39,522 nt of DNA from Pseudobdellovibrionaceae bacterium. GTDB lineage: Bacteria > Bdellovibrionota > Bdellovibrionia > Bdellovibrionales > JAMPXM01. Below are positions 850-30,275 of the stretch, one piece after another (position 1 is the first letter of the stretch; every line of letters begins with the position of its first letter). The notes under the pieces were generated by a model. It saw nothing but the letters and a program-made list of their open reading frames with translations. It was not told the origin of the DNA and ran no database searches. Location of the stretch: the NCBI GenBank assembly GCA_016791465.1, contig JAEUWE010000515.1, forward strand, positions 1 through 39,522. The letters are read 5' to 3'. The translations under genes and the position numbers were made by a program.

Positions 850-2829
850 ATGTTACATTGCGCCACTGAGGAGCTAAACGGCAGCACTGCACTTGCATTG
901 AAGTTTATGTGGAGGTCTCACGTGAGCTGGTTCCGCACCGGTCATTTCAAAACTGCCGTACATTTCGGCACTCTCGCCGCGACCATCATGTCCGCGGCAT
1001 TGACCGCCTGTGCACCGGCTCCCAGTGCAAAGAATGAGTTCTTCCAAGCCACAAATCAGACAGGCCTCAAAACCGACGACGGCCGCGCCTTCACCGGTGC
1101 CGGCAAATCCACGGAACTTCAAACCTTAAAGGCCGACGCCGCGGTCAGCGGCAGCAACGAGCAAGACCGCGAACTCGCGTCTCGCATCCTCGTGGCGTCA
1201 ATCGACCGCACCAACAAAGAGTTCCTCCGCGTCGTACTCTCCATCCGCTACATCGGTCGCATCTTTTTTGATTTTTCAGCAAACAATCTGCAGGCTGGTT
1301 CGGACCGTCAATTCACCGCTCAAACTGGAAAAGCACCGAGCGGAGACGCCGTTCCCTTCGAACTCTCGCTTCAGTGCAATACCGCACCCGCCGCAAAAGG
1401 CACGCTCCCCACTTGCGCCATAGCAACGCTTTCACTCAAAGAAACTCGCGGTGCCGGAGCCCGCGCCGGCCTCATCGTGCGCACACAAGACAGCTCAGTC
1501 ATCGCACGATCAACAAAGAACACAGTGAAGATTCCGGCCCTAAAGCGTCTACTCGACACGTTTAAAACAGCCCAAACGCGTACGCTTCAAACCTTCGAAG
1601 TCGCCTGGGGCCCATCGGGCTTTGACCTGCAGCTCGGCGACAAAGAACTCTGCCCAGCAGGGCGTCTTGTTGAAACAAACGAACTCGACGAACCGCTTCG
1701 CATTGGTTGCCCCGGCGTGACCGCCCCTGAGGTTTCCGGTCGAATGCTCGGCAACACCACGCGCGGCGAAGTCTTACTTGAGTTCAATGGAACGCACCGC
1801 CAGTTCATTCTTCCCAACGAAGAGGAGCAGGTCTACGTCGTCGTTCAAAAGCTCAAAGCAACGCCGACAACAAAACCGACCGCGACATCAAATGCTACGA
1901 CCGCTCAAGCAAAACCGCAGCCGGCGCTGATTCCAGTCCCGGCACCCGCGCTTTCTGACGACGAGATCGACACCGAGGACGACGGACCCACGGCCGTCCC
2001 CGAGGCGCCCATCGCTGCATCAGAAAAAGTCGATACCGCAAAACAGAATCCAGCTCCTGCTCCGCCGACAATCAAAATTATCGTTCCACCACAAACTGGA
2101 ACCGGCTGGCTCATTCCGACAAATCCCGAACACCCCGCCACCAAGGTTTGGAATAAGGACCGATCAAACCCGATTATCGATAGCGCTGTGAAAGCGTGGC
2201 TGGCGCTGCCACGTCTGAAAAAGTTTGCGACCAACTTTTTACCCAATCGCGACCTTGTTGTGGGGCAAATCACTAGCCAGGGTGCTCCTGCCGAAACGGC
2301 GGCGCTCACGCTGATCGAATCCACATTCTTCATTGAGGAAGGATACCCGATTCAGATTGGCGGAGCTGGCGAAGTCGGCCCTTGGCAGTTTATGCTTGGC
2401 ACCGCCAAAAGCCCTCTCCTGAGCCTTCCCTTTGTCAAAGCGGCCGTTCGCCCTTCCGGAAAAAAACCAGGAAGCTTCGACCCTTGCGACTCGCGCGCAA
2501 ACCTTGAGCTTTCATCTCGAGCTGCCGGCCGCTACATGAACTATCTGATCAAGATGTTCCCACGCGATCCCAAACTCGCTGTCCTCTCCTACAACTGGGG
2601 CGAAGGAAACACCGATCGCGCCATGGACAAACTCACAGCCCGAATGACTGAAATTAAAAATATCGGTTTAAACTACTGGGCCGTCCGCAAATTCAACATG
2701 GCCCCCATCGGCCCCATTCAATACGTTGAAAAGTTCGTTTCCGCCCATCACGCCTTCCTTGAAATGGAACCGATTAAAGCTGACCCGCGCATCGCGCCCT
2801 GGAAAGCACCAGCGCAGTGCGCGCGCTAG
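850..2829 (+). CDS. Lipoprotein with C-terminal lytic transglycosylase (SLT, goose-lysozyme-like) domain
   Basis: 659-aa ORF. The N-terminus has a lipobox-like AALTAC. A Pro/Thr/Ala-rich linker follows (KPTATSNATTAQAKPQPALIPVPAPA). The C-terminal region carries SLT motifs: LIESTF (catalytic Glu-Ser), GGAGEVGPWQFMLGTAK and LSYNWGEGN. The start is uncertain (850 or the ATG at 907). Confidence 0.7.
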   Translation: MLHCATEELNGSTALALKFMWRSHVSWFRTGHFKTAVHFGTLAATIMSAALTACAPAPSAKNEFFQATNQTGLKTDDGRAFTGAGKSTELQTLKADAAVSGSNEQDRELASRILVASIDRTNKEFLRVVLSIRYIGRIFFDFSANNLQAGSDRQFTAQTGKAPSGDAVPFELSLQCNTAPAAKGTLPTCAIATLSLKETRGAGARAGLIVRTQDSSVIARSTKNTVKIPALKRLLDTFKTAQTRTLQTFEVAWGPSGFDLQLGDKELCPAGRLVETNELDEPLRIGCPGVTAPEVSGRMLGNTTRGEVLLEFNGTHRQFILPNEEEQVYVVVQKLKATPTTKPTATSNATTAQAKPQPALIPVPAPALSDDEIDTEDDGPTAVPEAPIAASEKVDTAKQNPAPAPPTIKIIVPPQTGTGWLIPTNPEHPATKVWNKDRSNPIIDSAVKAWLALPRLKKFATNFLPNRDLVVGQITSQGAPAETAALTLIESTFFIEEGYPIQIGGAGEVGPWQFMLGTAKSPLLSLPFVKAAVRPSGKKPGSFDPCDSRANLELSSRAAGRYMNYLIKMFPRDPKLAVLSYNWGEGNTDRAMDKLTARMTEIKNIGLNYWAVRKFNMAPIGPIQYVEKFVSAHHAFLEMEPIKADPRIAPWKAPAQCAR

Positions 2830-3677
2830 ATCTTTCCTCCAGCCAATCGAAACGTATTCTCAAGTAGCATTTGAATCGTCATTGGCCCCACTCCGCCAGG
2901 CACCGGCGTCATCGCCTGAGCCCAACCATGCAGCTCATCCAAGCGCACATCACCACAAAGACCCTTCTCGCCTCGATGCATTCCAACGTCCGCTATGACC
3001 ACGCCTTTTTTAAAGGCCGATTTGCCAAGGAGATGTCGCTGCCCCACAGCCACGACGACGATATCCGCTTCGCGCGTCACGGCTTCAAGGTCATGCGTCT
3101 TCGAATGCGCCATCGTCACCGTTGCATTTGCTTGAAGTAAAAGCTGAGCCATCGGCTTTCCTACGATATTGCTTCGGCCAATCACCACTGCGTTCTTACC
3201 CGCAACATCGATCTTGTAGTGCTCAAAAATCTTCATCACTCCAAACGGCGTGCACGGAGCCACTCGAGTACGGCCCGAAAACAAAAGCCCAAGGTTCGCA
3301 CTCGTCAAACCATCCGGATCCTTCTCACCTCGGATTCGCTCCAAAGCTTCCGTCTCATTCAAGTGCTTCGGCAGCGGTAGCTGCACCAGAATGCCATCGA
3401 CATCAGTTCTCGCATTGAGTTCATCAATCGCCTTGTGCAAATCGGCCTGCGTCAGCGTCGCTGGCTTCTCCAAATGGAAACTCTCAATTCCTGCCTCCGC
3501 ACACGCTTTGATCTTATTCTTCACATAGATCTGGCTCGCAGGGTCATGTCCGACGATCACCACCGCCAGGCCCGGAGCTCGACCCTTCGTTTTCGTAAAT
3601 TCTGCCACTTTTTCGCGAAGAATCGCTCGGCGCGCCTGCGCCACCGCTTTTCCGTCAAGAATGAGAGTATTGGTCAT
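2826..3677 (-). CDS. folD: Bifunctional methylenetetrahydrofolate dehydrogenase / methenyltetrahydrofolate cyclohydrolase
   Basis: 283 aa. Shows typical FolD features: ILDGKAVA, PGLAVVIVGHDPASQIYVKNK, DGILVQLPLP, GKNAVVIGRSNIVGKPMAQLL, PVPGGVGPMT. Confidence 0.95.
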   Translation of the reverse strand: MTNTLILDGKAVAQARRAILREKVAEFTKTKGRAPGLAVVIVGHDPASQIYVKNKIKACAEAGIESFHLEKPATLTQADLHKAIDELNARTDVDGILVQLPLPKHLNETEALERIRGEKDPDGLTSANLGLLFSGRTRVAPCTPFGVMKIFEHYKIDVAGKNAVVIGRSNIVGKPMAQLLLQANATVTMAHSKTHDLEAVTREADIVVVAVGQRHLLGKSAFKKGVVIADVGMHRGEKGLCGDVRLDELHGWAQAMTPVPGGVGPMTIQMLLENTFRLAGGKI

Positions 3678-4152: not shown

Positions 4153-4434
4153 ATGCCAAAGCCAATCGCTCACAAGGTCAAAAATCCCCTTCGCAACTCT
4201 CGCGGCCAGGGGCTCGTTGAGTACCTGATCATCGTCGCTCTCGTCGCTGTCGCCGCCATTGGTGTGGTGCGTGTTATGGGGCAAGCCGTAAACTCCCGCT
4301 TCGCCACCATTAGCTATGCTCTTCAGGGCGTCAAAAAGAAGCCCGCCGTAGATGCGATCGACGAATCACAACTCAAAAAGAAAGACCTCGGTGACTTCAT
4401 GGATGGCGTCGGCCAGTCGCAGGGCCGAGACTAA
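4153..4434 (+). CDS. flp: Flp/Fap family type IVb pilin
   Basis: 93 aa with a strong RBS. The N-terminus NSRGQGLVEYLIIVALVAVAAIGVV matches the Flp prepilin motif (Gly, then Glu at +5 and Tyr at +6, then a hydrophobic helix). Confidence 0.8.
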   Translation: MPKPIAHKVKNPLRNSRGQGLVEYLIIVALVAVAAIGVVRVMGQAVNSRFATISYALQGVKKKPAVDAIDESQLKKKDLGDFMDGVGQSQGRD

Positions 4435-5557: not shown

Positions 5558-5706
5558 TTCTTGTTCTTACCCTATTTGTCGCAAGTATCGCGGCCTGCGC
5601 ATGGAGATGGAATGAAATTTCTGATGAAATTCAAGATACCGGGTACCGACACATTCGCTCAGTTCCGAAAGTCCCTGCTCGGAAACCTGCGAGCCGCTCT
5701 CGCTGA
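5515..5706 (+). CDS. Possible small pseudopilin-like ORF (63 aa) overlapping both neighbours
   Basis: The N-terminus MEATNCRGQALIELILVLTLFVASIAA has Gly, then Glu at +5, then a hydrophobic helix (class III / prepilin-like signal). It overlaps the tadG-like gene by 43 nt and the next gene by about 95 nt in another frame, so its reality is uncertain. Confidence 0.3.
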   Translation: MEATNCRGQALIELILVLTLFVASIAACAWRWNEISDEIQDTGYRHIRSVPKVPARKPASRSR

Positions 5707-6268
5707 TCGATTCTCCAGTGAAGTACTGAAGGACAACTCGATCGAAGGTCAGGCGAGAACATTTCGTCTCTGGGTTCTCATCTCTGGCGTTACTTTGCTT
5801 ATTTGTGCTTTATCGAACAGCTCGGCAACGACCGGATCATCCCCCGTTGCACCTCAGTCAGAATCGATCGATATCACAGCACAGATTCCAGCCGGGCTGC
5901 TCGTTGTTCCTATACAGGCCGCAAACTATTCAACACTCGACCCCCTGCTCAATCAACACTCCTGGGCCGATATTTACCTTCCCAGTCTCGATGGCTCGCG
6001 AGGTCTACGGATTGCTGAATCTATTCCCGTTATTCGCACCTCTCAGAATCGACAACATCTTGCGGCCCTCATTCCTGAGGGAGAACCGTCGCCGCTGCTG
6101 TCGATCTCCGACCCAGTCATCGTGATTCTGCGCAGCTCGCCAAAGAAACGCGCCGGACGTGGTCAACCAGCGACACTCGACCGAAAGCAAGCAGGCCCTC
6201 TCAGACGCGAAACCCGGAGTCAGCTTCACCTGATCGAAGAAACGGAGATCACAAATGAAACAGAATGA
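5612..6268 (+). CDS. CpaB/RcpC-like Flp pilus assembly protein (short form, no obvious SAF domain)
   Basis: The track ORF is 5561..6268. The ATG at 5612 follows GGAGA with a 4-5 nt spacer. One TM helix (FRLWVLISGVTLLICAL). The segments IPAGLLVVPIQAANYSTLDPLLNQHSWADIYL ... IPVIRT ... VIVILRS resemble the CpaB C-terminal pattern (ip.G.r.v.i ... pgd.vDv ... l.l.LR). Confidence 0.4.
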   Translation: MKFLMKFKIPGTDTFAQFRKSLLGNLRAALADRFSSEVLKDNSIEGQARTFRLWVLISGVTLLICALSNSSATTGSSPVAPQSESIDITAQIPAGLLVVPIQAANYSTLDPLLNQHSWADIYLPSLDGSRGLRIAESIPVIRTSQNRQHLAALIPEGEPSPLLSISDPVIVILRSSPKKRAGRGQPATLDRKQAGPLRRETRSQLHLIEETEITNETE

Positions 6269-7340
6269 ATGGCGTAAAAACGTTACTGTCATTGTCGGTC
6301 TTCTGCTGGCAAGCATCGCCAATACGGCACAGGCCGCTCTCATCCAAAGTACAGAACTACAAAAGGACGAATTTGCCGGAGTGGCCCGCGCACTCAATCA
6401 AGAAACTTGGACCGAGTACTATATCTCTCGGTACCAAACGCGTGAGCAGACCAACCCCGCCATCCTTAGGGCTTTCACCAATGCTCAAAAGGAGTGGCTC
6501 GATTTTTCTAACAACAAGGCAACAGGACAGCAGAGCAAGTGGCCAATGCATCAGGAACTTTGGCGTCAGGCGAACGAGCTCGATGCGGATAACCGCCAGC
6601 GCGCGCTCGCCGCTAAAATGTTTGATCGTCTGACGACTGAACAAACGCACCTTTCTTCTGACCAACAAAGTCAGTGGCGGCAGCGCAGCCAAACGCTAAA
6701 TCCCCTGCTCGAAACAGGTTCAAACTCAACCAATATGGATCAGAAGAAAGACGTCACCGCCGATATTCGGCGTTGGCTATTAACTTGGGACGCCGTCCTG
6801 ATCGATGGAACGGCATTTCGGCAAAGCGCTCTCCCGCAAGGCGTGCGACTACCGCCAACTGAGCACCGAGTTATCTTCGTCAGCAACAGCCTGAAAACGG
6901 TCGCCACAACGATACTGGTCGAAAAATTCCAAACCTATGAGCCTCCGCAGGTTCCGCTCCTCAGTGGCCGATGCCGAAATGGTCAGATTGCACAACTCGA
7001 CTCCTCTCTCTTGGAGAGTGATCCCACTCTGCGAGAGGCATACGAGAGCCAGACTCTTCGCGCCGTTGGCTCAGGGCTTTGTCAAATGTCGATCAGACCC
7101 GTCCATTCCGATCGAACTGCCACTACATCTGAGAAAGAGGAAGCCGACATTCGTGCGTTTGGACTTGAGCGAGGAGCGGACGGGATCTACATGCCGTCGA
7201 AAGAGCCCGACCGCATACAAGGTCGATCAAATCTATGGATCGGAATTGCCGTCGGAGTATTGGCCGCTGGAGCTTACGCATTTTGGAGACAGCAACAACA
7301 GCAAGACCCTGCTCCCGCCGTTCACCATCAAGGATTTTAA
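6255..7340 (+). CDS. Hypothetical secreted protein with C-terminal membrane anchor, last gene of the flp-proximal block
   Basis: 361 aa. Signal peptide VIVGLLLASIANTAQA. Gln-rich helical N-terminal half. C-terminal TM helix LWIGIAVGVLAAGAYAFW followed by QQQQQ. Overlaps the previous gene by 14 nt. No family recognised. Confidence 0.5.
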   Translation: MKQNEWRKNVTVIVGLLLASIANTAQAALIQSTELQKDEFAGVARALNQETWTEYYISRYQTREQTNPAILRAFTNAQKEWLDFSNNKATGQQSKWPMHQELWRQANELDADNRQRALAAKMFDRLTTEQTHLSSDQQSQWRQRSQTLNPLLETGSNSTNMDQKKDVTADIRRWLLTWDAVLIDGTAFRQSALPQGVRLPPTEHRVIFVSNSLKTVATTILVEKFQTYEPPQVPLLSGRCRNGQIAQLDSSLLESDPTLREAYESQTLRAVGSGLCQMSIRPVHSDRTATTSEKEEADIRAFGLERGADGIYMPSKEPDRIQGRSNLWIGIAVGVLAAGAYAFWRQQQQQDPAPAVHHQGF

Positions 7341-8425
7341 AGAGAAGGTTTATAGGCCTCAAAAAAACGATCCAGCACCATCGGCGTCAGGCGATAGCCA
7401 TCAAAGTCTTTCATCGTGTTGAGAGATTCATTGAATCCCCCTTGGCAACGGGCCCATAAAATAGAATCGAGAGCGAAATAGGCTCGAGTCAACAGCGAGC
7501 GATCTGTGTCTGCTGCGCTCGCAAGCAGCAGACCGGTCCGTGGAACAGTCCGAATGAGGCCGGTACGAAAGTAGTTGGCCGCATCGCACGCCAGAATGCC
7601 AACAATCTTTGGTGGATGAGCGGTCGTCTGAAGCGCCGACAACATTTTGTCATAACCAGAGCGATCACGCTGATACTCTTCGTAGGCGATTGAACCGTTC
7701 GCACGACGAGCGGCAGGCGTAAAGCTTGGGCCACCACCTTTTCGAGCGTGGCCCGCATAGAGAACAACATCGGCGTCGCGAAGAGCGCTATGGAAAAACT
7801 TTTCTGCTTCATGAGACGCGCGCGCTTGCGCGCTGGGCCCCTCATCACTGCTGCTCCCGCTGATGCGAAGTTCAACCGTGTGTGTGCGACCGCTGGGACC
7901 GACGATCTCCTTGGTGAAGAGATTCATATCGGATTCGGAACGTTTAAAGTCGCAAGCTCGAACATTGGACTCGCAAAGATCGGGATTGCTTGCGGCCTTT
8001 GCTCCTATGCACTCGGGCAGGCGCCTCACGCAGGGGCGAATCAATTGTTCAATAAGGACGGCGCGCAAGAGGCTATCGTCTGATTTCTTTGATGTCTCGC
8101 TATCGATAAAACCAAATGCAATTCGAATATCAATTTTGTCTTTTGAATAGAAATCGGCCCAGGCCTTACTGCAGATGGTCTTTGGATCACTCGCGTCGGA
8201 CGGTGTCGCTTCTCCGGCCGAGAATGCGTCGCAGTCGGGGCACTTGTGACGAAATGAATCCATCAGATCATGTGCATACTGAATCATTTCCGGAAGCTTC
8301 ACCTCTTGCGAAATCGTCTGCGGCGACTTCGCGTTTGCAGACTTCGCTACTGGTTTTGTCTCCGCGGCACTTCCGCCGACGACCGAAAGGATGACACCCA
8401 AGAAAACAACCAGATGTGGCATCAT
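7337..8425 (-). CDS. Secreted Cys-rich hypothetical protein with a caspase/CHAT-like His...Cys pattern
   Basis: 362 aa. Signal peptide MMPHLVVFLGVILSVVGGSAA. Has DVVLYAGHARKGGG (His226) and KIVGILACDAANY (Cys280). Each follows a hydrophobic strand, and they lie 54 residues apart. The ATGA overlap with the upstream gene suggests translational coupling. Confidence 0.55.
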   Translation of the reverse strand: MMPHLVVFLGVILSVVGGSAAETKPVAKSANAKSPQTISQEVKLPEMIQYAHDLMDSFRHKCPDCDAFSAGEATPSDASDPKTICSKAWADFYSKDKIDIRIAFGFIDSETSKKSDDSLLRAVLIEQLIRPCVRRLPECIGAKAASNPDLCESNVRACDFKRSESDMNLFTKEIVGPSGRTHTVELRISGSSSDEGPSAQARASHEAEKFFHSALRDADVVLYAGHARKGGGPSFTPAARRANGSIAYEEYQRDRSGYDKMLSALQTTAHPPKIVGILACDAANYFRTGLIRTVPRTGLLLASAADTDRSLLTRAYFALDSILWARCQGGFNESLNTMKDFDGYRLTPMVLDRFFEAYKPSL

Positions 8426-9267
8426 GGCGTCTCCAGGCTATCAAGACAGGCACGACGAACTTCGGCATCACCGAGTCGCTGACAATAGAGGAGTGGTTTT
8501 TTCTCGCTCGACCAATATTTGGCTTTTTGAGATTCGGGAAGCGACGCCAAAAGCGCGTAGGCGCTGATTTTCACCTGCTTGGTTTTGCCTGTGGCGGCCT
8601 CTTTAATAAACACCAGTATGTTTTTCTGATGCTGATCCTGATCTCGCGTCATCCAATCGACCGCGAGCATTCGCAGCTCGGGCTGATTGGCCCGAAGAAG
8701 CGCATTCAATTCTGTAAAAGTCGGTCGATAACCAACAGCGGATAGACCACCGAGTATGCCGAGGCGAACAGAGAGTGCCGCTTCCGGTTTTAACGCGCGT
8801 GCCATAAATGTCGGCCCTGAGAACGTTTTCGCACATTTGGAGTCGAGTATGACTTCGAGCTGCGAGAGCTTTGCCGTTGAAATATCCGGCTCCTGATTGA
8901 GTTGAGGCCACGAGCTCTTGAGTCGCTGACTGAGGTCACAACTCCAGAGCGAATGTCCATCGACAAGGGTGCGAGCCGTGATAATGGCCAAGTCGTGTTC
9001 TGATATCGTCGGATTTTTTATCCAAGTGGCCAAGGCACCAGTGGCCCTCTTGAGATCTGCTTCAGAAAGATTGATGAGTGCTTTCGTGCGCGCAGCACTC
9101 GCGTCCTCATCTTGTCCTACTCGTGTGACCTTCTTCAACCATTCGCAATCAGCACAGTCCGATGTCTTGGCTTGCACCTGCATCTGCGCTTGTGCCACGT
9201 TGGAAAACAACGCAAACACAAGCGCGGAGAATGAAACGGCATAAGCTGTCGAAATCGATGGCTTCAT
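8422..9267 (-). CDS. Secreted all-helical hypothetical protein (possible HEAT/ARM-like repeats)
   Basis: The track ORF extends to a TTG at 9444. The ATG at 9267 gives a clean signal peptide (MKPSISTAYAVSFSALVFALFSNVAQA) and avoids overlap with the terminator and the upstream gene. 282 aa. Confidence 0.55.
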   Translation of the reverse strand: MKPSISTAYAVSFSALVFALFSNVAQAQMQVQAKTSDCADCEWLKKVTRVGQDEDASAARTKALINLSEADLKRATGALATWIKNPTISEHDLAIITARTLVDGHSLWSCDLSQRLKSSWPQLNQEPDISTAKLSQLEVILDSKCAKTFSGPTFMARALKPEAALSVRLGILGGLSAVGYRPTFTELNALLRANQPELRMLAVDWMTRDQDQHQKNILVFIKEAATGKTKQVKISAYALLASLPESQKAKYWSSEKKPLLYCQRLGDAEVRRACLDSLETP

Positions 9268-9346: not shown

Positions 9347-11974
9347 CTATCTCGTTCGTCCCGGAGTCGTTCCCGACGTTGGGCCGGAGCCCCCTGGCAA
9401 AGTGCCTGAGCCAGATCCAGGCGAGAAGATAATATCTCCGCCAACTCCGCCGCTTCCGAAATACTGGTTCCACTTCGTTTGGAACTGCATGTATTCCTGC
9501 ATGAAGCCCTGGTACAGCCTTAAACGAGACTGCGCCTGATCTTGATAGCGACGTTGCGCTTCGATTTGCAGATTGTACTGTTGCATCTGGAGCTGCAGAT
9601 ACTGCTGCTGTGTATAGGCGTCGGTCCCACCACCTGGGAATGGTGCAAGGAAACCACCACCGGCCATGCCCGGCATTCCCATGTAACCACCGGCAATGCC
9701 GCCAGCCATTCCTGGCATACCCATGTAACCACCGGCAATGCCGCCAGCTAACGCGCCCGCCATTCCCGGCGCACCCATATAGCCCGGCATACCCATGTAA
9801 CCACCTGCGATGCCGCCAGCTAACGCGCCCGCCATTCCTGGCGCACCCATATAGCCCGGCATACCCATGTACCCACCCGCAATACCGCCAGCCAATGCGC
9901 CCGCCATTCCTGGCACACCCATATAGCCGCCAGCCATTCCTGGCATGCCCATGTAACCACCCGCAATACCGCCAGCAATTCCACCGACAAAGCCGCCAGC
10001 ACCGGGATATCCTCCCGGCCAACCGCCGGTACCCCACGGGCCATTCATACCCCACGGGCCAGCACCCGGCATGTACATGCCGCCGCCGATTTGCGGATAG
10101 CCATAGCCCTGCGGATAACCGAATGGTCCACCGACTCCGCCGTAGATGCTGCCGCCCATTCCATACGGACCAGCCATGCCCATCGGTCCAAAGACCGAGC
10201 CGCCGCCGCCCATCATCGGTGAGCAACCATACGAACCATTCATGCCGCCATACATACCGCCGTACAACATCGCCGTGTTATAGGGGAAGAAGCCGCCAAT
10301 GTTCGTCGCGTATGGTAGAGCCTGATTGCCAGTTCTTGCGTTCCATTCGTTGGCTTTGTTGGCCACTTTGTAGTTCGCAAAAATAGAGAGAGCATCAAGG
10401 CCGACCGCGAGCAATGTCTGCCCAGTCGATGGACCACGTGAACGACTCGAACGCTTAAAGCCCGATTCGTAGCACGTTCCAGATGGACAATCGGCCTCCA
10501 TGTCGCGGTCAAGGCGAGCCGCCATTTTGAGATCGCCAATGCGGAAGCCAATGTCAGCGATGTCGTTTTCCATCTTGCCGACTTGCTGTTTCGCGCGATC
10601 GATCTCTTTGGTGATCTTGCGATAGCGCTCAAGCGAACGCGAACAGTTCTGTGCTTGTGCTCCACGAATGTCGCCCTGCTGGAAATAACGATTGCGGCAA
10701 AGCGTTTCCGAAACACCGCCGTCGCTCTTACAGATCGCCTGGAACGGAGGCGACATCACTGTCTCTCCGGGATTGGCAACGTAAGGACGTTTGCTCTCGT
10801 AGCACAGTGTCTTTCCGCCATCGGCGCTGCTCGCTGGGCCTGAGAAGTTCGTAAGATCTCCCCAGTTGTCGCTCGCACTCTCACTCGCCGTGCCGCCGCC
10901 AATGGTCGCCTTGATGCTCACGCGCTCTTGGGCCGGCATTCGGCCGCCGCCAAGTTCGCTTGCCGGCATTCGGCCGCCACTCGGCTGCTCAAGAGCCGAA
11001 AGACAAACCCCATCAGAGTTATACTTACCCTTCTTGCCTTTATTCTTGCCCTTTTCAATAGTGCAAGGATCGCCCGGGTTCTTTGATGGGCTTGGATTTT
11101 TGGGTTCCTCTGGTGGCTTGCTTGGTGGCTTCACCGCTGGCGGTTTGGCCGCTTGCTCTGGAAGCGGACGTTCTTCAATTTTCTCCGGCGGTTTCACCGG
11201 AAAAGTCTGTGCAACTGGAGCTTTTGGTTGTTCGCGAATAACTGGTTTGGGCTCGCGTGTTTCAACCGGCGCTGGCGGTTGCGTCCAGAACTTATTGTTT
11301 GTCGGATCTGCCGATTGCTCAGGTGCAGGAGCTGGCGCCGTCGATGGCATTTTGATGACCACACGCTCAGTCTCGGTGCGTTCACGACGAATCACCTCAG
11401 GTCCTGGATCTTGTGCGACCGGTGGACGCTGCTCTGGTTCCTGCTGCACAGGAGGACGCTGTTGAACAGGAGGACGCGGGGGCGGCTCTTGTGCAACTGG
11501 TGGCTCTTGCTGAACCGGCGGCTGCTGTTGAACAGGCGGAGCCGGAGGAGGACGCTGTTCCGGAGGACGTGGCGGCGGCACGGGCGTCATCGGCGGCTGT
11601 TGCTGAACAGGCGGCTGTGCGCCGACGATGCAACAGTTCATGCCGTATTCCATGTGATAGATCGCGACTTCAGCCCACGCTGGCTTAACGGTCGAATCGA
11701 TCGCCTCTTTCAAGCGTTCGCGATCGCGCTCAAGCTGACTGATCATCTTTTCAAGACGGCGTTTTTCTTGGCGAAGCTCGATGCGATCTTGCTTTAGTTC
11801 AGCAAGCTCATCGTCTTCGTCAGAAGCACCACTCGCCGCGCCTCCGCCCCAAGGACAAGGCTGCATGCCGCCATACATACCGACGCCCCAGTTGCCTTGC
11901 ATCTGAGCGCCAGAAACAGATGAGAACACCATGGTGCCCGTCATCAGGAGTTTTGCCCACTCTTTGAGCTTCAT
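9347..11974 (-). CDS. Large secreted low-complexity protein: coiled coils, Pro/Gln-rich spacer, Cys-containing core, uncharged Gly/Met/Tyr-rich repeat region
   Basis: 875 aa, with RBS GAGGAG and signal peptide MKLKEWAKLLMTGTMVFSSVSGA. Coiled-coil-like charged heptads lie at aa ~55-95 and ~445-490. (Q)QPPVQQEPP-type repeats span aa ~119-190. There is no D/E/K/R from about aa 548 to 784. Tandem units of the form AGALAGGIAGGYMGMPGYMGAPGM are present. The C-terminus is Gln-rich and helical. Confidence 0.8.
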   Translation of the reverse strand: MKLKEWAKLLMTGTMVFSSVSGAQMQGNWGVGMYGGMQPCPWGGGAASGASDEDDELAELKQDRIELRQEKRRLEKMISQLERDRERLKEAIDSTVKPAWAEVAIYHMEYGMNCCIVGAQPPVQQQPPMTPVPPPRPPEQRPPPAPPVQQQPPVQQEPPVAQEPPPRPPVQQRPPVQQEPEQRPPVAQDPGPEVIRRERTETERVVIKMPSTAPAPAPEQSADPTNNKFWTQPPAPVETREPKPVIREQPKAPVAQTFPVKPPEKIEERPLPEQAAKPPAVKPPSKPPEEPKNPSPSKNPGDPCTIEKGKNKGKKGKYNSDGVCLSALEQPSGGRMPASELGGGRMPAQERVSIKATIGGGTASESASDNWGDLTNFSGPASSADGGKTLCYESKRPYVANPGETVMSPPFQAICKSDGGVSETLCRNRYFQQGDIRGAQAQNCSRSLERYRKITKEIDRAKQQVGKMENDIADIGFRIGDLKMAARLDRDMEADCPSGTCYESGFKRSSRSRGPSTGQTLLAVGLDALSIFANYKVANKANEWNARTGNQALPYATNIGGFFPYNTAMLYGGMYGGMNGSYGCSPMMGGGGSVFGPMGMAGPYGMGGSIYGGVGGPFGYPQGYGYPQIGGGMYMPGAGPWGMNGPWGTGGWPGGYPGAGGFVGGIAGGIAGGYMGMPGMAGGYMGVPGMAGALAGGIAGGYMGMPGYMGAPGMAGALAGGIAGGYMGMPGYMGAPGMAGALAGGIAGGYMGMPGMAGGIAGGYMGMPGMAGGGFLAPFPGGGTDAYTQQQYLQLQMQQYNLQIEAQRRYQDQAQSRLRLYQGFMQEYMQFQTKWNQYFGSGGVGGDIIFSPGSGSGTLPGGSGPTSGTTPGRTR
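9656..9994 (-). repeat. In-frame tandem repeat, about 72-nt (24-aa) period plus shorter 30-36-nt sub-units
   Basis: Near-identical copies of GCCAGCTAACGCGCCCGCCATTCC(C/T)GGCGCACCCATATAGCCCGGCATACCCATGTAACC occur about 72 nt apart (around 9744 and 9816). Degenerate copies lie on both sides. They encode GGIAGGYMGMPG(YMGAPG)MAGALA. Confidence 0.8.
11405..11620 (-). repeat. Degenerate coding repeats for a Pro/Gln-rich segment
   Basis: Repeated CTGTTGAACAGGAGG / CTGCTGTTGAACAGG-type units encode PPVQQ(Q/E/R)PP repeats (aa ~119-190). Confidence 0.55.
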
Positions 11975-12364
11975 TTCGTCTCCTCAGAATGACCGCGAAT
12001 TCTGATACGAATTCGAAGCCATACACTTTGCTAAACAGTCTCTCTCATGTCTCATCTCGACATTTTTCGGTCTCAACTTGAGCTGGACTGGACGATCGAA
12101 AACTAGACCAGCACAACGTCGAGAAGATCCGATTCAAATGTCTCGACCATGGGATGGAGAAACGCAGACTGATTTCAAAGCGCCGGCCAATAGGCCAGGA
12201 ATGTCCGCTTATGTGTGGCACGCAAATAACTTCGTGTGCCGATCTCTCGTTCACCATCCATGGTCATTTTCATCCTGCTTTTCGCTTTGAAAACTCTCGC
12301 GAAAACTCGCTTCACAAGAGCTCCAAACTGAAAGAACAGGTGAAAATCGAGCCTTCGGCTTTTC

Positions 12365-12405: not shown

Positions 12406-13527
12406 ATGAAGCACACCATTCTTTGCGTTGATGACGAAGTCGACAATGTCGATGCCCTAGAGCGCCTGCTGCGAAACAAGTACCGAGTCCTCAAGGCTGT
12501 TTCCGGCGATGCTGCGTTGAAAATCCTCGACCAAAATCGGGTCACAGTGATCATTAGCGATCAGCGAATGCCGCAGATGACGGGCGTCGAATTTTTATCT
12601 CAGTCCCTCCGCACGCACCCAAACGCTATTCGCGTTCTGCTCACCGGCTACGCCGACATCGAAGTCGTGATCGAGGCGATCAATAGCGGCCACATCTATC
12701 GCTACGTCACGAAACCATGGGACCCAGTTGATTTGGTCAACACCATCGATAAAGCGGTTGAACGCTATGAACTGGGCGAGGCCCTAGTTGAAACCAATCG
12801 GAAGCTGAGCGAAGCGCTGGTTGAGCTGCAAACGCTCGATCAAGCGAAGAACCAGTTTATGGTTCTGGTGAATCACGAATTAAAAACTCCGCTCACTACG
12901 ATGCTTAGTTTTTCGGATCTTCTTTCCGAAACCAAACTTGATGTCGACCAAGAGCGCTACTTAAGCCGCATCCGCGCCGCCGCCCATCGCCTGCAGGAGA
13001 TGATCAATGACTCACTCGAACTTGTCTCCGCAGAAACGCAGCAAACCAAACTGAGTCTCGCGCGCCTTAAAACCAAAGAGCTATTTGCCACCGCAGCACT
13101 CCCAGAGGCCATTCACAAGCTGCTTGCCGAGAAACACCTTGAGATGAAACTCGATATCGACAATCAGGATGTCGTTGCCGACGAACGGCTGATCCGAAAT
13201 GTCTACCGTCGACTTCTTCATAACGCCGTAAAATTTGCCGACGCAAACACCGAGATTTGTATCAAGGGACAAAGTCAGGGCGGCCTCTACCACCTTTCGA
13301 TAACCGACACCGGCAAAGCTCTCGATGAATCGAAGGTCAAATCGCTCTTGAAGCCATTCACCTTGAATGAAAACACGCTCAATCACTCGGTCGGCACAGG
13401 GCTTGGACTCAGTATCTCCAATGCACTCTTGAAACTTCACTCCTCTGGACTCGAGTTTAAAACGACTGGCAACACGGTCACAGTCTCGTTTCAACTCGGA
13501 CGAGATCCCGACAAAATCGAGCCGTAG
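12406..13527 (+). CDS. Hybrid two-component protein: N-terminal receiver domain, HisKA, HATPase_c; no sensor or TM domain
   Basis: 373 aa. REC features: ILCVDDE, VIISDQRMPQMTG, YVTKPWD. A coiled linker follows. H-box VNHELKTPL. N-box LLHNAVKFA. DTGKAL (imperfect G1 box). G2 box GTGLGLSI. Confidence 0.85.
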   Translation: MKHTILCVDDEVDNVDALERLLRNKYRVLKAVSGDAALKILDQNRVTVIISDQRMPQMTGVEFLSQSLRTHPNAIRVLLTGYADIEVVIEAINSGHIYRYVTKPWDPVDLVNTIDKAVERYELGEALVETNRKLSEALVELQTLDQAKNQFMVLVNHELKTPLTTMLSFSDLLSETKLDVDQERYLSRIRAAAHRLQEMINDSLELVSAETQQTKLSLARLKTKELFATAALPEAIHKLLAEKHLEMKLDIDNQDVVADERLIRNVYRRLLHNAVKFADANTEICIKGQSQGGLYHLSITDTGKALDESKVKSLLKPFTLNENTLNHSVGTGLGLSISNALLKLHSSGLEFKTTGNTVTVSFQLGRDPDKIEP

Positions 13528-13606
13528 CTTCAGCTCTTGTCTCTCGTTCTTGCATTGATGCCGGATGGCCTCATCAGGCCCCACTCACTGCAAGGAGACG
13601 TTTACC

Positions 13607-14938
13607 ATGTCCGAGCCGCGTCCGCTCCGTCGCATCGGCCTTCAGTTTTTCACTTTCATGACTCTCACGCTGCCAAGTCTCACCTTTGGATCGCCCGCCG
13701 ATTTTGTCGTCGTCGGTCTTGGCGAAAGCCGGCGCATCGAAATCGAGGCTGGCCGACAAGCCCACCTGAGCGATGGCAGCATCGTCAGAAGTCGCGTCTC
13801 GGGGCGCGAAATTATTTTCACCGGCCGACGTATCGGACGTGCCAATCTTCGAATTTTTGGAGGACACGAAAGTGCCGATCGCATGATCTACGTCGTCGAT
13901 CGCAAGGTCGCACGCGGAATCGAAGAGCTGATGGGCCGCCTCGAGGACATGCGAGGTCTCTATCTCGATGCGAATGCACTTCCCGCGCTTGTCGTTAGTG
14001 GTGAACTTTTACGCCTGCAGGACTGGGAAACAATCGCCAAACTTGCTCGTGAACGCGATCTCAACTGGCTGTTTAAACCAACGCTTGCGCCCGCAATGAA
14101 TCGCGCTCTCACGAATGCAATGCGCACTCAGCTTGAGAACACTCAGGCCCAGGCTTATCCGCTTTCCATTGCGGAACAGCGAATTACAATCGCCGTTCCA
14201 GAAACCCCTTCTCCAGGAAACCCAGGCCTGACGCCCCAGCAGAAGAAACATATCGGAGCCATGGGAATCGAGATTCTTCCTGTGTCATCGGTCACGTCGC
14301 TTGAACCACTTGTTCGAACTCGAATCGTCATTGCCGAGATTCGAAAAAGCGAAGCGCGACGCCTTGGGATTAAGCCACCTGACAGCGTTGAAGCCGAACT
14401 CTTGCCTGCATGGAAACTAGGACTGACCGCTCGCATTGAGGCCATGGAACAAGTCGGAGACGGAAAAATTCTCGCAATGCCCAACCTGCTCTGTCGCTCT
14501 GGTGGTGAGGCCAAGTTTCTTGCAGGTGGAGAAATTCCAATTAAGATCGCGACCACAAAGACCTCTCATGTCGACTGGCGAAAGTACGGAATTCAACTGA
14601 TGGTTAAGCCCATCGCCGACGCCAAAGGCCGAATGAAGATAGAGCTCACGACTGAGATCTCAACAATTGATGGAGCCGCGGCAGCCGACGGTATTCCAGG
14701 TCTGCTAGTCAATCGCATTGAGACGCAGTTCAACCTATCCAGCTCCAGAACAATCGTGCTGTCGGGGCTCTTGAAACGGGAAGAATCAAAATCGGCGAGC
14801 GGCCTCCCCCTCCTTCGGTCACTGCCGATTCTTGGTCGTCTTTTTGAAAGCCGATCCTTCAATGACGGCTTGACCGAGCTCATCGCCTTCGTCACTCCCG
14901 AAGTTATCTCCCCTGACTCGGCGGCACTCTCATGGTAA
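13607..14938 (+). CDS. cpaC: Flp pilus secretin (CpaC/RcpA family)
   Basis: The track ORF starts at 13565. The ATG at 13607 follows AAGGAGA with an 8-nt spacer and gives a signal peptide. It has an N-terminal pilus-formation domain pattern (VVVGLGESRRIEI ... GRANLRIF) and a C-terminal secretin domain (GGEIPI, GIPGLLVNRIET, SGLPLLRSLPILGRLF, LIAFVTPEVI). Confidence 0.85.
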   Translation: MSEPRPLRRIGLQFFTFMTLTLPSLTFGSPADFVVVGLGESRRIEIEAGRQAHLSDGSIVRSRVSGREIIFTGRRIGRANLRIFGGHESADRMIYVVDRKVARGIEELMGRLEDMRGLYLDANALPALVVSGELLRLQDWETIAKLARERDLNWLFKPTLAPAMNRALTNAMRTQLENTQAQAYPLSIAEQRITIAVPETPSPGNPGLTPQQKKHIGAMGIEILPVSSVTSLEPLVRTRIVIAEIRKSEARRLGIKPPDSVEAELLPAWKLGLTARIEAMEQVGDGKILAMPNLLCRSGGEAKFLAGGEIPIKIATTKTSHVDWRKYGIQLMVKPIADAKGRMKIELTTEISTIDGAAAADGIPGLLVNRIETQFNLSSSRTIVLSGLLKREESKSASGLPLLRSLPILGRLFESRSFNDGLTELIAFVTPEVISPDSAALSW

Positions 14939-16077
14939 ACGCAATCGCTGTCACGAACGTGATTCAAGCTGTTCTCGATGCTATTCAGAAAATTCCGAGT
15001 CATCGTCACGTCACGATCCTTGAACGTGCCGACTTCAATACAGATCGTGCTCTGCTTGAATGCGTCGAGCGCGTTCTAAAAAATGAATCCGCGGAAATCC
15101 AAGAACGGGTTCGAGCGGAGATTTTCGGGTTCGGCCCACTGGAACGCCTCATTCTCGATATCGACGTGACCGAGATTCTTATTCTCGGACATCGGACGAT
15201 CTGGATTGAAAAATATGGTCGGCTTGAACCTTACGATGATCGTTTTCACGACGAACTCACCTATCGAAACGCGGTCTCTCGGCTTGCGAAAAAAGCACGT
15301 ACAGCTGTTGATCACTCGATCCCGTTTGCCGACGGACGCTGGCGCGGATTTCGTGTTCACTCCGTCGGTGAGCCCATTGTGCAGTCTGGTCCACACATGA
15401 CTCTCAGACGAATCCGCTCGACCCCCTGGACTCTCAACGACCTCGCGGAGCGGAATTGGGCACCAGCCGACGGCCTAGCGCAGCTTCAGAAGTTGATCGA
15501 CGATCAATGCAATATCCTTGTCGTTGGAGGAACAGGCTCAGGCAAAACATCGGTCATGGGAGCATGCCTGAAAAGTTTGGGAGAGAAGGAGCGGTGCTTA
15601 ATCCTCGAAGACACTGACGAACTGCCATGTCCAAATGCCATGAGCGCAAAGCTCCTGACAAAACGGGCTCGAATCAGTGGCGATACCGCCTACGATCTCG
15701 ATTCGCTTTTGAAACAAGCGCTGCGCATGCGACCTGACCGATTGATCTTGGGCGAAGTACGTGGAGCTGAAGCGAAGGATCTCTTGATGGCTTTTGCGAC
15801 GGGACACCGGGGCTGCATGGGAACATTGCACGCAAATAGTCCGCGGGAAGCCTTACTCAGGCTCGAGATGCTCGTGCAGATGGGAGCACCGCAATGGAAC
15901 GAGAAAACGGTAAAGCAGTTGATTCATAGCGCGATCGACGCGATCGTCTGTGTTTCACGGACAGAAAATGGCGAAAGGCGGCTCGAGTCTATCTCTCGAG
16001 TCGCCTCACTAGAAGAAATCGGATTTTGCTTCACACCGCTTTATGCGCGGAAGTTGATGAAGCTTCCCTTTGGGTAA
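14932..16077 (+). CDS. cpaF: Flp pilus assembly ATPase (CpaF/TadA family, secretion NTPase)
   Basis: 381 aa, with a 7-nt overlap with cpaC. Walker A VVGGTGSGKTS. ILEDTDEL (Asp box). RPDRLILGEVRGAEA (Walker B region). GHRGCMGTLHANS (His box). Confidence 0.9.
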   Translation: MVNAIAVTNVIQAVLDAIQKIPSHRHVTILERADFNTDRALLECVERVLKNESAEIQERVRAEIFGFGPLERLILDIDVTEILILGHRTIWIEKYGRLEPYDDRFHDELTYRNAVSRLAKKARTAVDHSIPFADGRWRGFRVHSVGEPIVQSGPHMTLRRIRSTPWTLNDLAERNWAPADGLAQLQKLIDDQCNILVVGGTGSGKTSVMGACLKSLGEKERCLILEDTDELPCPNAMSAKLLTKRARISGDTAYDLDSLLKQALRMRPDRLILGEVRGAEAKDLLMAFATGHRGCMGTLHANSPREALLRLEMLVQMGAPQWNEKTVKQLIHSAIDAIVCVSRTENGERRLESISRVASLEEIGFCFTPLYARKLMKLPFG

Positions 16078-20710: not shown

Positions 20711-21520
20711 CTAGTGGAAATGCCCCCGGCAGCTAAACCTCACAGTTTCAGCAGGATGATCTTGTTGAATGGCGACGGTACCGGTAAATGGCGTTCCTGG
20801 CCAAACGTCAAAGTGAACCATGATTCCGCCGCTCAGGGGATTATTTTTCATAATCAGTGACGATCCCGTCGTCCCAATCATCGATTTGATCTGCCCCTCC
20901 GAGTACGTCACTTTCATTCTATCCGCCGAAAGCGTCTCTGAGTTTCCATCTGGAAGGCCATTCAAATAGACCACCGCTCGAAACTCATTGTGGCTCTCTA
21001 CGCGATACTCAAGAAGTTCGAGAGTATAGTGAGATGCATTTGAGATGGAGGATCCCGTCAAAAAGGGACAACTCACCCGGTTGATTTCTATTCCAGGGCC
21101 ATTCAAAATTTTATTCGAAATCGAAAATGTTCGGTCGTCGTATCCCATTAATCCCAAGAACTCGTGCAGAACCAACACATACTTAAGCTTGGGAGTTTCT
21201 AACAGATCCTTCCAACGAGTTTGAGAAACACGGATCTCTTGCAGAGAGGGAGTATTGATCGCACTGACTTCATCTTTTCCAAGATAAACTTTTTCTTGCG
21301 AGAATATCTCTGCGTTCTCGATGGTCGTTGCAAAAAGGTCAACATTAACGGACTTGTGTTTCTGCTGAACGAGCATCCTGTGAATGCTTCTCGCAATATC
21401 AAAAACTTCGGAGACGACTCCGTCGCCCCCGTTGCTTGAAATTCCACCCCTAGCCTGCGCCGGTGTCTGCTGAATAAAAACACATGCTACAGCAATAAAA
21501 TGAGCAAAGAACTTCTTCAT
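20711..21520 (-). CDS. Secreted hypothetical protein (269 aa), two-domain
   Basis: Signal peptide MKKFFAHFIAVACVFIQQTPAQA, followed by GGISSNGGDGVV. The C-terminal ~113 aa are bracketed by Cys residues (VSCPF ... RFSC). No family recognised. Confidence 0.55.
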   Translation of the reverse strand: MKKFFAHFIAVACVFIQQTPAQARGGISSNGGDGVVSEVFDIARSIHRMLVQQKHKSVNVDLFATTIENAEIFSQEKVYLGKDEVSAINTPSLQEIRVSQTRWKDLLETPKLKYVLVLHEFLGLMGYDDRTFSISNKILNGPGIEINRVSCPFLTGSSISNASHYTLELLEYRVESHNEFRAVVYLNGLPDGNSETLSADRMKVTYSEGQIKSMIGTTGSSLIMKNNPLSGGIMVHFDVWPGTPFTGTVAIQQDHPAETVRFSCRGHFH

Positions 21521-21561
21521 TGAACATCCTCACGTCGATCAGGTTATGGGCGAGTTAGCAT

Positions 21562-21972
21562 CTACCACAAAAGGCAGGAGAACAGCGATGTGACTGTTTT
21601 ACCGAGAACACTTTCAGAAATTTTTATCTGACCATTGGCCTCGTCAATATAGAGTTCAGCACTCACTGACGGATTGACCGATCGATACTGATCTTCCGCA
21701 GAGTTTGCAGCTGTAAACTCATGACTGAACGGAGCCTCGTCTCCCACTCGAAAGACAAAGTTGGCACGACCCGGCTGGCCGTCTACCGCACAAAAGATCC
21801 CCTCGACCGGAAACGGTGAATATGTCGGCATGCCTCCGTTCTCACGCATCTCAATCAAACTACATCGTGCCATCTGTGCCTTGGCACTCGGGCACTCCAG
21901 CATCGCGGCTTGAGCGGTTTGGTGTGCGGACAAAATAACGGCAGCTGAAGCGAGGATAACTGAACTTTTCAA
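21562..21972 (-). CDS. Small secreted Cys-containing hypothetical protein (136 aa), TTG start
   Basis: RBS GGGAGAG. Signal peptide KSSVILASAAVILSAHQTAQA. The mature part is bracketed by LECPS ... LFSC, similar to the C-terminal domain of the neighbouring 269-aa protein. Confidence 0.5.
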   Translation of the reverse strand: MKSSVILASAAVILSAHQTAQAAMLECPSAKAQMARCSLIEMRENGGMPTYSPFPVEGIFCAVDGQPGRANFVFRVGDEAPFSHEFTAANSAEDQYRSVNPSVSAELYIDEANGQIKISESVLGKTVTSLFSCLLW

Positions 21973-24458: not shown

Positions 24459-24562
24459 TTAGTTCCCTCTCCAAACGACACATTCAGAGTATCAAGCCCT
24501 GAGCCCCCTTTAAAGTCCTGAGTCTTTCATGCCAGACTACAGGACCTAGGCCCAAAGCGGTT

Positions 24563-30202: not shown

Positions 30203-30275
30203 TCTCGACCCGTCCTGGGTTCAAAGTTCCGCCCAAGGTCCATCCTGAACCCCGCACCTATCAAACAATCCGTTC

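Follow-up and report, generated by a model that had tools for sequence, protein, structure and literature searches.

We analysed 39,522 nucleotides of a Pseudobdellovibrionaceae bacterium (positions 1 to 39,522 of contig JAEUWE010000515.1, forward strand, GenBank assembly GCA_016791465.1; this whole stretch is called the window below), with a focus on one open reading frame (ORF) that encodes a protein of 875 amino acids (aa). A first-pass annotation, made from the letters of the sequence, had described it as a secreted protein with an uncharged Gly/Met/Tyr-rich region. Judged by its homologues, the protein is one of a large family, so far without a name and confined to Bdellovibrionota, and its very probable positional orthologue in Bdellovibrio bacteriovorus, Bd3304, has a transposon sequencing (Tn-seq) phenotype in predation. 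The family, its fixed position beside Tad-like genes and this phenotype had all escaped the first-pass annotation, whose interpretation is partly supported by the results below.

The 875-residue protein and its gene

The ORF and its parts lie on the minus strand, which had been left unstated, at the following positions of the window.

9347..11974, minus: whole ORF, 875 aa plus stop, ATG start; a member of the Bd3304-type family
11980..11985, minus: Shine-Dalgarno sequence GAGGAG, 5 nt before the ATG, seen directly in the sequence
11906..11974, minus: Sec-type signal peptide, aa 1-23, MKLKEWAKLLMTGTMVFSSVSGA followed by Q; inferred cleavage site
11807..11905, minus: mature N-terminus, aa 24-56, with the motif W-G-x-G-M-Y-G-G-M-Q-x-C, C40, and then the acidic patch GASDEDDE
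11618..11806, minus: charged helix 1, aa 57-119, with conserved H107 and C114 at its end
11075..11617, minus: Pro/Gln-rich spacer with PPVQQ repeats, aa 120-300, an insert particular to the sub-lineage
10334..11074, minus: Cys-containing core and helix 2, aa 301-547, with conserved C415, C426, C444, C496 and C501
9986..10333, minus: sequence-conserved uncharged part, aa 548-663, with YGGxYGG..FGC (C584), FGxP and GGGMYxPGxGPWGMNGPWG, in which columns are (nearly) invariant
9623..9985, minus: variable Gly/Met repeat array, aa 664-784, of GGIAGGYMGMPG(YMGAPG)MAGALA units, with 19 Met
9714..9928, minus: 72-nt tandem DNA repeat, 3.0 copies, 93% matches (Tandem Repeats Finder)
9663-9748: 42-nt unit, 2 copies, overlapping the 72-nt repeat (Tandem Repeats Finder)
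9455..9622, minus: Gln-rich helix, aa 785-840, kept across the family
9347..9454, minus: Gly/Ser/Thr/Pro tail, aa 841-875; last residues ...TPGRTR, with the Arg that is a hallmark of the family

Translation and AlphaFold2 modelling reproduced the anatomy first proposed (signal peptide, coiled coils, spacer and core), and the motifs reported with it are all present: GGMYGG (aa 572), GYGYPQ (aa 623), GPWG (aa 639 and 645), PPVQQ, and the Gln-rich tail with QQQYLQLQMQQYNLQIEAQRRYQ. The n-region of the signal peptide is rich in Lys and precedes a hydrophobic core, and S-G-A occupies positions -3 to -1. The spacer consists of 32% Pro and 12% Gln and contains PPVQQ five times. The longest run without Asp, Glu, Lys or Arg (DEKR) covers the 237 residues of aa 548-784, exactly the stretch that had been pointed out; given about 19% DEKR in the remainder of the protein, we estimate the chance of such a run at about 1e-22. 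This region contains 38% Gly, 13% Met, 11% Ala, 10% Pro and 8% Tyr and no His, and the earlier count of 19 Met in about 113 aa is exact (aa 664-776). A membrane anchor was considered and rejected, as the top 19-residue hydropathy window (aa 520-538) reaches 1.26, under the transmembrane level. Scans for sigma-70 promoters and terminators around the gene gave nothing better than shuffled sequences, and a sigma-28 (FliA) type motif was seen upstream of 1 of 35 family genes (shuffled expectation 2%).

The 72-nt repeats noticed in the first pass were recovered by Tandem Repeats Finder. The two full copies encode the same 24-residue peptide with 5 synonymous differences, which argues against a collapsed or duplicated assembly. 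A contig of a related Bdellovibrionales metagenome-assembled genome (MAG; JADJOF010000002.1, our locus L001) is collinear with positions 1-21.8 kb of the window at about 86% nucleotide identity, and its orthologue of the gene encodes 874 aa. Between the two, the 875-aa frame shows 283 synonymous and 50 non-synonymous differences, with a synonymous divergence (dS) of 0.73 and a ratio of non-synonymous to synonymous divergence (dN/dS) of 0.035; the ratio in the Gly/Met repeats (0.039) and in the Pro spacer (0.045) is as low as in the helices. The 875-aa ORF is a real gene under strong purifying selection. That it might instead be spurious, or the product of a misassembled GC-rich repeat, is hardly credible. 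Several long ORFs that overlap in other reading frames at the repeats could be read that way, and they are by-products of the repeat; against it stand the selection on this one frame, the synonymous divergence between the repeat copies, hundreds of homologues with the same architecture (including complete genomes of cultured strains), and the Tn-seq phenotype and measured transcription of the orthologue. The possibility of an assembly artefact, which the first-pass annotation had named as fatal to its reading, can therefore be set aside. The repeat arrays are being remodelled, as had been expected of near-identical DNA repeats: pairs of relatives whose flanks are 93-95% identical have arrays of different length (e.g. 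173 vs 151 aa) and unit number.

A family of Bdellovibrionota

As first suspected, no characterised family accounts for the protein. Pfam and NCBIfam scans of the 875-aa sequence gave sub-threshold coiled-coil noise only, PDB sequence searches with two family profiles gave weak coiled-coil or low-complexity matches only (E>0.04), and a Foldseek search of the mostly low-confidence AlphaFold2 model against PDB gave nothing below E=4.7. Homologues are found in an exhaustive hidden Markov model (HMM) search of 1.84 billion representatives, for which the N-terminal 650 residues alone served as query: 330 clusters at E<=1e-3, 222 at E<=1e-10 and 78 at E<=1e-30. A word-index homologue search yielded no more than 4-5 relatives, also when a diverse profile was used, since its candidate list fills up with low-complexity words. 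Every named member is a 'hypothetical protein' of Bdellovibrionota, including that of the cultured Bdellovibrio sp. HCB209.

For the locus search we used a profile built from an 11-sequence alignment (one of 35 sequences was too diverse for the search patterns). Three scans, with one genome per species (185,579 species), found 138 loci with a family ORF, comprising 103 distinct ORFs. The carriers include the complete genomes of B. bacteriovorus s4, Bd16, kdesi and Bd5, as well as strain YOA24, several Bdellovibrio sp. HCB isolates and a Pseudobdellovibrio MAG. A degenerate DNA motif for GG-M-[YF]-xx-G-xx-PWG matched 69 places in the same species genomes. Of these, 56 carry a family ORF, all in Bdellovibrionota except two MAGs labelled merely 'Proteobacteria'; 12 matches lie in other phyla, without a family ORF, and their number is about that expected by chance.

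Two paralogues per genome are the usual number, and the second paralogues lie at unrelated loci. One clade has, ahead of the second paralogue, a conserved secreted helical ORF of 147-154 aa without a Pfam match (L009:9512-9955, L012:5030-5488, L013:9457-9900, L014:5788-6252 and L017:7041-7505), which holds 'LTQEQISAIK', reminiscent of the LTxxQ motif of the CpxP/Spy periplasmic chaperones.

The family architecture, in the numbering of the window protein, starts with a signal peptide ending in A-Q and the motif [WF]GxG[ML]YGGMQxC (aa 1-40 here). It continues with an acidic patch and a charged helix closing at H107 and C114, a variable insert, and then W411, G419, C426, C444, a second long helix, E493 and C496...C501. 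G549 and P/Y, YGGxxGG..FGC (C584), FGxP and GGGMYxPGxGPWGxxGPWG (aa 630-648 here) follow, together with a DEKR-free Gly-rich run of at least 100 aa, a Gln-rich helix (aa 786-839) and a Gly/Ser tail with a final Arg (...GRTR). Statistics of conservation, Cys content and composition were taken over about 115 diverged members. At the signal-peptide junction A23 is kept in 85% and Q24 in 79% of them; G30, G32, G35, G36 and C40 are kept in 73-99%, H107 in 95% and C114 in 70%. The Pro/Gln spacer has an occupancy of 5-45% in the family alignment. Arg is the last residue of 101 of the 106 complete genome ORFs and of 107 of the 126 representatives, usually as ...GR, ...SR or ...TR; we know of no sorting or processing signal that it fits.

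A charge-free run is kept in all members, with a length of 100-330 aa (median 207) and median contents of 33% Gly, 12.7% Met, 30% aromatic residues plus Met and Leu, and 0% His. Its Met content ranges from 0 to 36%, with 25 of 115 members below 5%; some lineages that are poor in Met are rich in Leu. The array units vary by lineage (GGxAGMPG, GGMMGMPMG, GMGMGSPFG, and the Leu-containing GLSGLNG and GLGGLGG). Across these sequences, selection preserves the composition and length of the block while its repeat units turn over. By analogy, composition that is kept while units drift is a pattern typical of cohesive or elastomeric low-complexity domains, and the first-pass comparison with elastomeric or phase-separating domains is the one that fits best, since it is composition and not sequence that is conserved across the members. 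Collagen-like repeats (PF01391) were considered and rejected: the longest Gly-X-Y run is 6 triplets (family median 5) and the window protein has no Pfam match. A precomputed PF01391 flag on one homologue (P0004) is probably an effect of composition.

AlphaFold2 predicts three helices, aa 51-110 (pLDDT 78-96), aa 438-494 (77-94) and aa 786-839 (61-73); outside them pLDDT is less than 50, and the Gly-rich region stands at about 30 with no secondary structure. All eight conserved Cys of the family are present in the window protein. C40 (found in 114 of 115 members), C426, C444 and C584 are invariant, and the others form two covarying pairs: 77 members have C114 together with C415, 32 have neither and 6 have one of the two, and 107 members have C496 together with C501, 8 have neither and none has just one. 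The mature part has an even number of Cys in 102 of 115 members. Such paired covariation and even counts are what is expected of an exported, fully disulfide-bonded protein, and with the signal peptide in mind we infer from these sequences that the protein is exported.

The locus and its counterpart in B. bacteriovorus

The family gene lies between Flp/TadE-like genes and a block that encodes a response-regulator/histidine-kinase (RR-HK) hybrid, a secretin and a TadA-type ATPase. Its neighbours in the window are as follows.

4153-4434, plus: Flp pilin with an RGQG/LVEY motif; Flp_Fap 28 bits (Pfam cut-off 32.2), Class III signal peptide 25.4 bits
4437-4817, plus: TadE-like ORF, convergent with the family gene
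up to 7340, plus: three ORFs of unknown kind, convergent with the family gene
12406-13527, plus: RR-HK hybrid (Pfam/NCBIfam), divergent from the family gene
13565-14938, plus: short secretin, 457 aa (Pfam/NCBIfam)
14932-16077, plus: TadA/VirB11-like ATPase (Pfam/NCBIfam)

Pfam and NCBIfam scans of the window found no TadB/C platform genes near the secretin/ATPase pair. The gene order, given from one end, is AspS and p168 (forward), ATPase, secretin and RR-HK (reverse), the family gene (forward) and, further on, minor-pilin-like ORFs and Flp (reverse) and FolD (forward). It recurs in about 50 loci, down to members 25-30% identical, and also on the contig of homologue P0001, where Flp and TadE occupy the same place as in the window. 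The housekeeping genes on the flanks of the block (for AspS, an RpoH-like sigma factor and FolD) show equal synteny, so that synteny alone is no proof of a functional link.

In B. bacteriovorus s4 (locus L032) the family gene comes after four small ORFs and an amidohydrolase gene and is followed by RR-HK, secretin and ATPase. The supplements of a Tn-seq study of strain 109J show this arrangement again: after four hypothetical genes and a gene for a metal-dependent hydrolase comes EP01_RS01730 (= Bd3304), and beyond it lie genes annotated as hybrid sensor kinase/response regulator, pilus assembly protein and Flp ATPase (Duncan et al. 2019, PMC6561027). Because the two orders are equal, Bd3304 is very probably the family's positional orthologue, an assignment made by gene order and not from the HD100 sequence. 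In HD100 bd3306 is annotated as pilQ and bd3307 as cpaF (PMC3818213). The labels given to Bd3304 in the 109J table, 'PE family protein' by RAST and Phyre matches to collagen I and colicin Ia (PMC6561027), fit a protein with a Gly-rich domain and long helices. Bd3304 has the same family architecture as the window protein (as seen in B. bacteriovorus strains) and the same slot beside the hybrid kinase, secretin and Flp ATPase genes. The B. bacteriovorus orthologues differ in that they are without the 180-aa Pro/Gln insert and have far Met-richer repeats (GGMMGMPMG), and an amidohydrolase gene lies immediately downstream of them where the window has two secreted ORFs. Bd0109, which is also beside Tad genes, was considered as the family gene and ruled out: it is a 65-kDa RHS/YD-repeat protein at another locus.

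Bd3304 ranks among the top hits of the 109J screen for predation genes. According to the Tn-seq data, its fitness values (W) are 0.0036 on planktonic V. cholerae, 0.060 on V. cholerae biofilm, and 0.036 and 0.083 on E. coli, with 0.0009-0.0099 in mini-Tn-seq; the planktonic value is comparable with that of pilB (0.0036) (PMC6561027). The gene is induced 11.7-fold in attack phase, and its scores for attachment (0.72+-0.11) and prey rounding (0.89+-0.65) are both above the defect thresholds of that paper (PMC6561027), which places the requirement for Bd3304 after attachment and prey rounding. Predation by 109J does not depend on the adjacent pilus genes: W is 1.5 for RR-HK, 1.9 for the secretin and 1.9 for the ATPase (range 1.4-1.9), and 0.8-2.0 for the small ORFs (PMC6561027). 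The hydrolase downstream of Bd3304 has a mild defect (W 0.17-0.65; PMC6561027), so polarity is not the cause of the Bd3304 defect. In that study 41 of 104 predation genes (about 40%) are 'hypothetical', Bd3304 among them (PMC6561027). We found no mention of Bd3304 or of Bd3299-Bd3308 in the main texts of the literature searched, PMC6561027 included, and did not identify the second paralogue in the Tn-seq hit tables of PMC6561027.

Other features of the window are given here as side observations. The Flp/TadE-like set at 4153-7340 matches by position the flp3 (bd3297) locus of HD100. Two of its ORFs, 5561-6268 and 6255-7340, are the most diverged from L001 (80% and 74% at the aa level) and could be variable minor-pilin 'tip' proteins like those of Myxococcus Kil pili (PMC12075869). 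Directly downstream of the family gene, ORFs 7337-8425 and 8422-9258 (both minus) have signal-peptide-like starts and may share its operon; they are seen only in the window and L001 and have no significant Pfam match. A protein of 659 aa with an SLT lytic transglycosylase domain (850-2829, plus) lies beside FolD (2826-3677, minus), and the two form a conserved flank of the Tad-like block in many loci. Positions 21001-21814 are 99.4% identical to L001, against 78-94% in the other 21 kb; this part, which overlaps the end of ORF 20711-21520 (no Pfam match), could be locally conserved or recently exchanged. A DUF4423/HTH protein is encoded at 22069-22887 (plus). A flagellar block at 23676-31058 (minus) contains genes for a FliA-type sigma factor, FlhG (ParA/MinD-like), FlhF (SRP54-type GTPase), FlhA, FlhB and FliR; its distance to the family gene is about 12 kb, and HD100 has a comparable arrangement, with fliA as bd3318 (PMC5430801).

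Interpretation and comparison with known systems

The reading we favour, tentatively and with slightly less than even confidence, is that of an exported structural protein in which a cohesive elastomer- or gel-like block, needed by the predator after prey attachment, lies between a helical stalk stapled by disulfides and a Gln-rich helix. After Sec export and removal of the signal peptide, the helices of aa 51-110 and aa 438-494 would probably pack as an antiparallel hairpin, giving a stalk about 9 nm long. Disulfides would staple it, likely C114-C415 at the tip and C496-C501 at the base, with two further ones among C40, C426, C444 and C584; the Pro/Gln insert of the window's lineage would sit at the hairpin tip. 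The base would hold both Gly-rich segments, i.e. the WGxGMYGGMQxC motif and the 237-residue charge-free domain. The latter is predicted to be disordered, with Gly as spacers and Met, Tyr, Phe and Trp as weakly hydrophobic 'stickers', and is followed by the Gln-rich helix. Since the charge-free domain would lie at the hairpin base with the Gln-rich helix after it, a cohesive block would be flanked by helices, and associating helices on either side of a flexible block are the design of network-forming gels. The layout would therefore be that of a network-forming (telechelic) elastomer or hydrogel. By self-association the protein may build an elastic or gel-like material, located in the envelope or at the cell surface, which attack-phase cells would need for a predation step after attachment to prey.

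It is rather doubtful, though worth considering, that the family goes further and is a bacterial Gly/Met 'rubber' or hydrogel, the first of its kind: a network former, exported and cross-linked by disulfides, which would resemble abductin or cohesive FG domains and which the attack-phase cell would deploy as a mechanical element of predation. If so, it might serve as a gasket of the predator-prey junction or entry pore, or as a deformable protective layer for the invading or growing cell, and this would explain why mutants attach to prey and round it yet fail to propagate.

Several points weigh against the structural-protein reading. The material state, location and oligomerisation proposed for family members are deduced from sequence and composition, and the hairpin and the disulfide partners of C40, C426, C444 and C584 are putative. 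The AlphaFold2 input alignment had 6 sequences, and low pLDDT is no proof of disorder. The near-invariant C-terminal Arg is left unexplained by an elastomer or gel model. The Bd3304 phenotype comes from pooled mutants of host-independent 109J that were neither individually validated nor complemented, the standard deviation of the rounding score is large, and the entry 'No Signal Sequence' for Bd3304 in the PMC6561027 table conflicts with our reading of the N-terminus. In the conserved core, the window protein is about 30% identical to Bdellovibrio-genus orthologues (alignment led by P0040, Bdellovibrio sp. HCB209), so that the phenotype reaches the window's organism by extrapolation.

The position of the gene suggests another role, in the adjacent Tad-like (Flp3-type) pilus/secretin machine, which the protein could serve as an accessory component, as a gate or plug, or as cargo, with the Gly-rich domain in or at the secretin channel. 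The slot is kept in the roughly 50 syntenic loci even between strongly diverged members, and a secretin and ATPase without nearby platform genes would make an unusual machine. We consider this quite unlikely: the 109J RR-HK, secretin and ATPase genes and the four small ORFs can be lost without the cost seen for Bd3304 (0.004-0.08), the pilin of the locus, flp3 (bd3297 in HD100), is reported as silent and dispensable (PMC5430801), second paralogues occur at unrelated loci, and the linkage may be core-genome synteny shared with AspS, the RpoH-like sigma factor and FolD. The window protein also has neither a prepilin G/xxxxEY motif nor a Tad Pfam domain. A different use of the same residues would be as a promiscuous hydrophobic surface that holds unfolded exported proteins, lipids or prey-envelope components. 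The M domain of SRP54 and the G/M region of Sis1 are precedents for such 'methionine bristles'. The Gly-Met (GGM) tail of GroEL is another (PMC11978752). The Met content of most members, about 5-fold over that of typical proteins and always in a Gly context, speaks for a binder of this kind, and the GGMMGMPMG units of the B. bacteriovorus orthologues are its extreme. We still regard it as unlikely, as the known examples are 13-60 residues long and sit on folded chaperone cores, while the runs here have 100-330 residues and are flanked by putatively oligomerising helices; moreover, 25 of 115 members have less than 5% Met, and no chaperone-type domain was found in the Pfam and NCBIfam scans.

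Chemistry of the Met side chain could also be the point of the domain. As a periplasmic redox buffer or sensor, it would undergo Met oxidation, sacrificial or reversible, that changes its solubility or assembly, for which the Met-rich domain of yeast Pbp1 is a precedent. Both the high Met content of an exported protein and the attack-phase induction would suit such a role, which we nevertheless take to be very unlikely given the wide range of Met content across the family and the high Leu content of some low-Met lineages, the absence of msr genes from the window and the annotated related loci, and the lack of a tie between the Tn-seq phenotype and oxidants. The first-pass annotation had thought of Cu(I)/Ag(I)-binding Mets motifs, and the window protein indeed has 7 MxM and 3 MxxM motifs. 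This suggestion is not supported. Copper or silver binding is highly improbable because Met is not conserved across the family; in addition, the charge-free run offers no His as a co-ligand and by its very definition excludes Asp and Glu, the genes nearby are Tad-like, two-component, tRNA-synthetase, sigma-factor and flagellar genes with no cop, cus, pco or multicopper-oxidase gene among them, and the known phenotype is a predation defect and not a metal phenotype.

Whatever the mechanism, the family now has a definable architecture, a clear Bdellovibrionota-only boundary and testable predictions, and its GGGMYxPGxGPWG motif can be used as a specific metagenome marker for Bdellovibrionia. Should the domain give rise to elastic or gel-like material outside the cytoplasm, it would constitute a new class of bacterial structural protein and a new component in the predator's entry, sealing or exploitation of prey, which is of relevance to the development of predatory bacteria as 'living antibiotics'. 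In this family one also has, in a natural and genetically tractable form, Met-rich elastomer-like sequences of a kind for which mollusc abductin is the only other known source.

The protein fits into no known family or system, and the only likenesses are compositional analogies. Mycobacterial PE-PGRS proteins share Gly-Ala-rich GGxGG-type repeats (GGIAGG occurs five times in the window protein); membership of PE/PE-PGRS was rejected, as the protein has no PE domain PF00934 (no Pfam match at E<=1) and a Sec signal peptide in place of ESX/type VII export, and comes from another phylum. The Met-rich Cu(I) sites of Ctr1, CopA, PcoA, CueO and CusF share clustered MxM/MxxM motifs, but here these come without His or Asp, without conservation of Met and without a copper context. 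Cohesive GLFG-type FG-nucleoporin domains and prion-like 'sticker-spacer' domains offer an analogy for the charge-free domain: they are likewise uncharged and Gly-rich with regular aromatic or hydrophobic residues, attached to coiled coils, and keep their composition while the sequence drifts. Compared to FG-nucleoporins, the present family is bacterial, exported and predicted to be disulfide-bonded, uses Met as a major sticker, and gives no sign of a pore or barrier role.

Abductin, from the hinge ligament of molluscs such as the scallop, is a secreted Gly/Met elastomer predicted to be random coil, with the repeat GGFGGMGGGX (PMC9999432). It is an animal protein of 116 aa with 58% Gly, 1% Pro and some Lys and shows no sequence homology to the window protein, which has 38% Gly, 10% Pro, zero charge over 237 aa, units of 12-24 aa and large helical flanks; in place of the abductin decapeptides we found the GGIAGGYMGMPG(YMGAPG)MAGALA units. 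In composition the two are alike, being secreted and Gly/Met-rich with aromatic residues, and with Cys and Tyr near the ends (PMC9999432), and by this measure abductin is the closest analogue of the charge-free domain.

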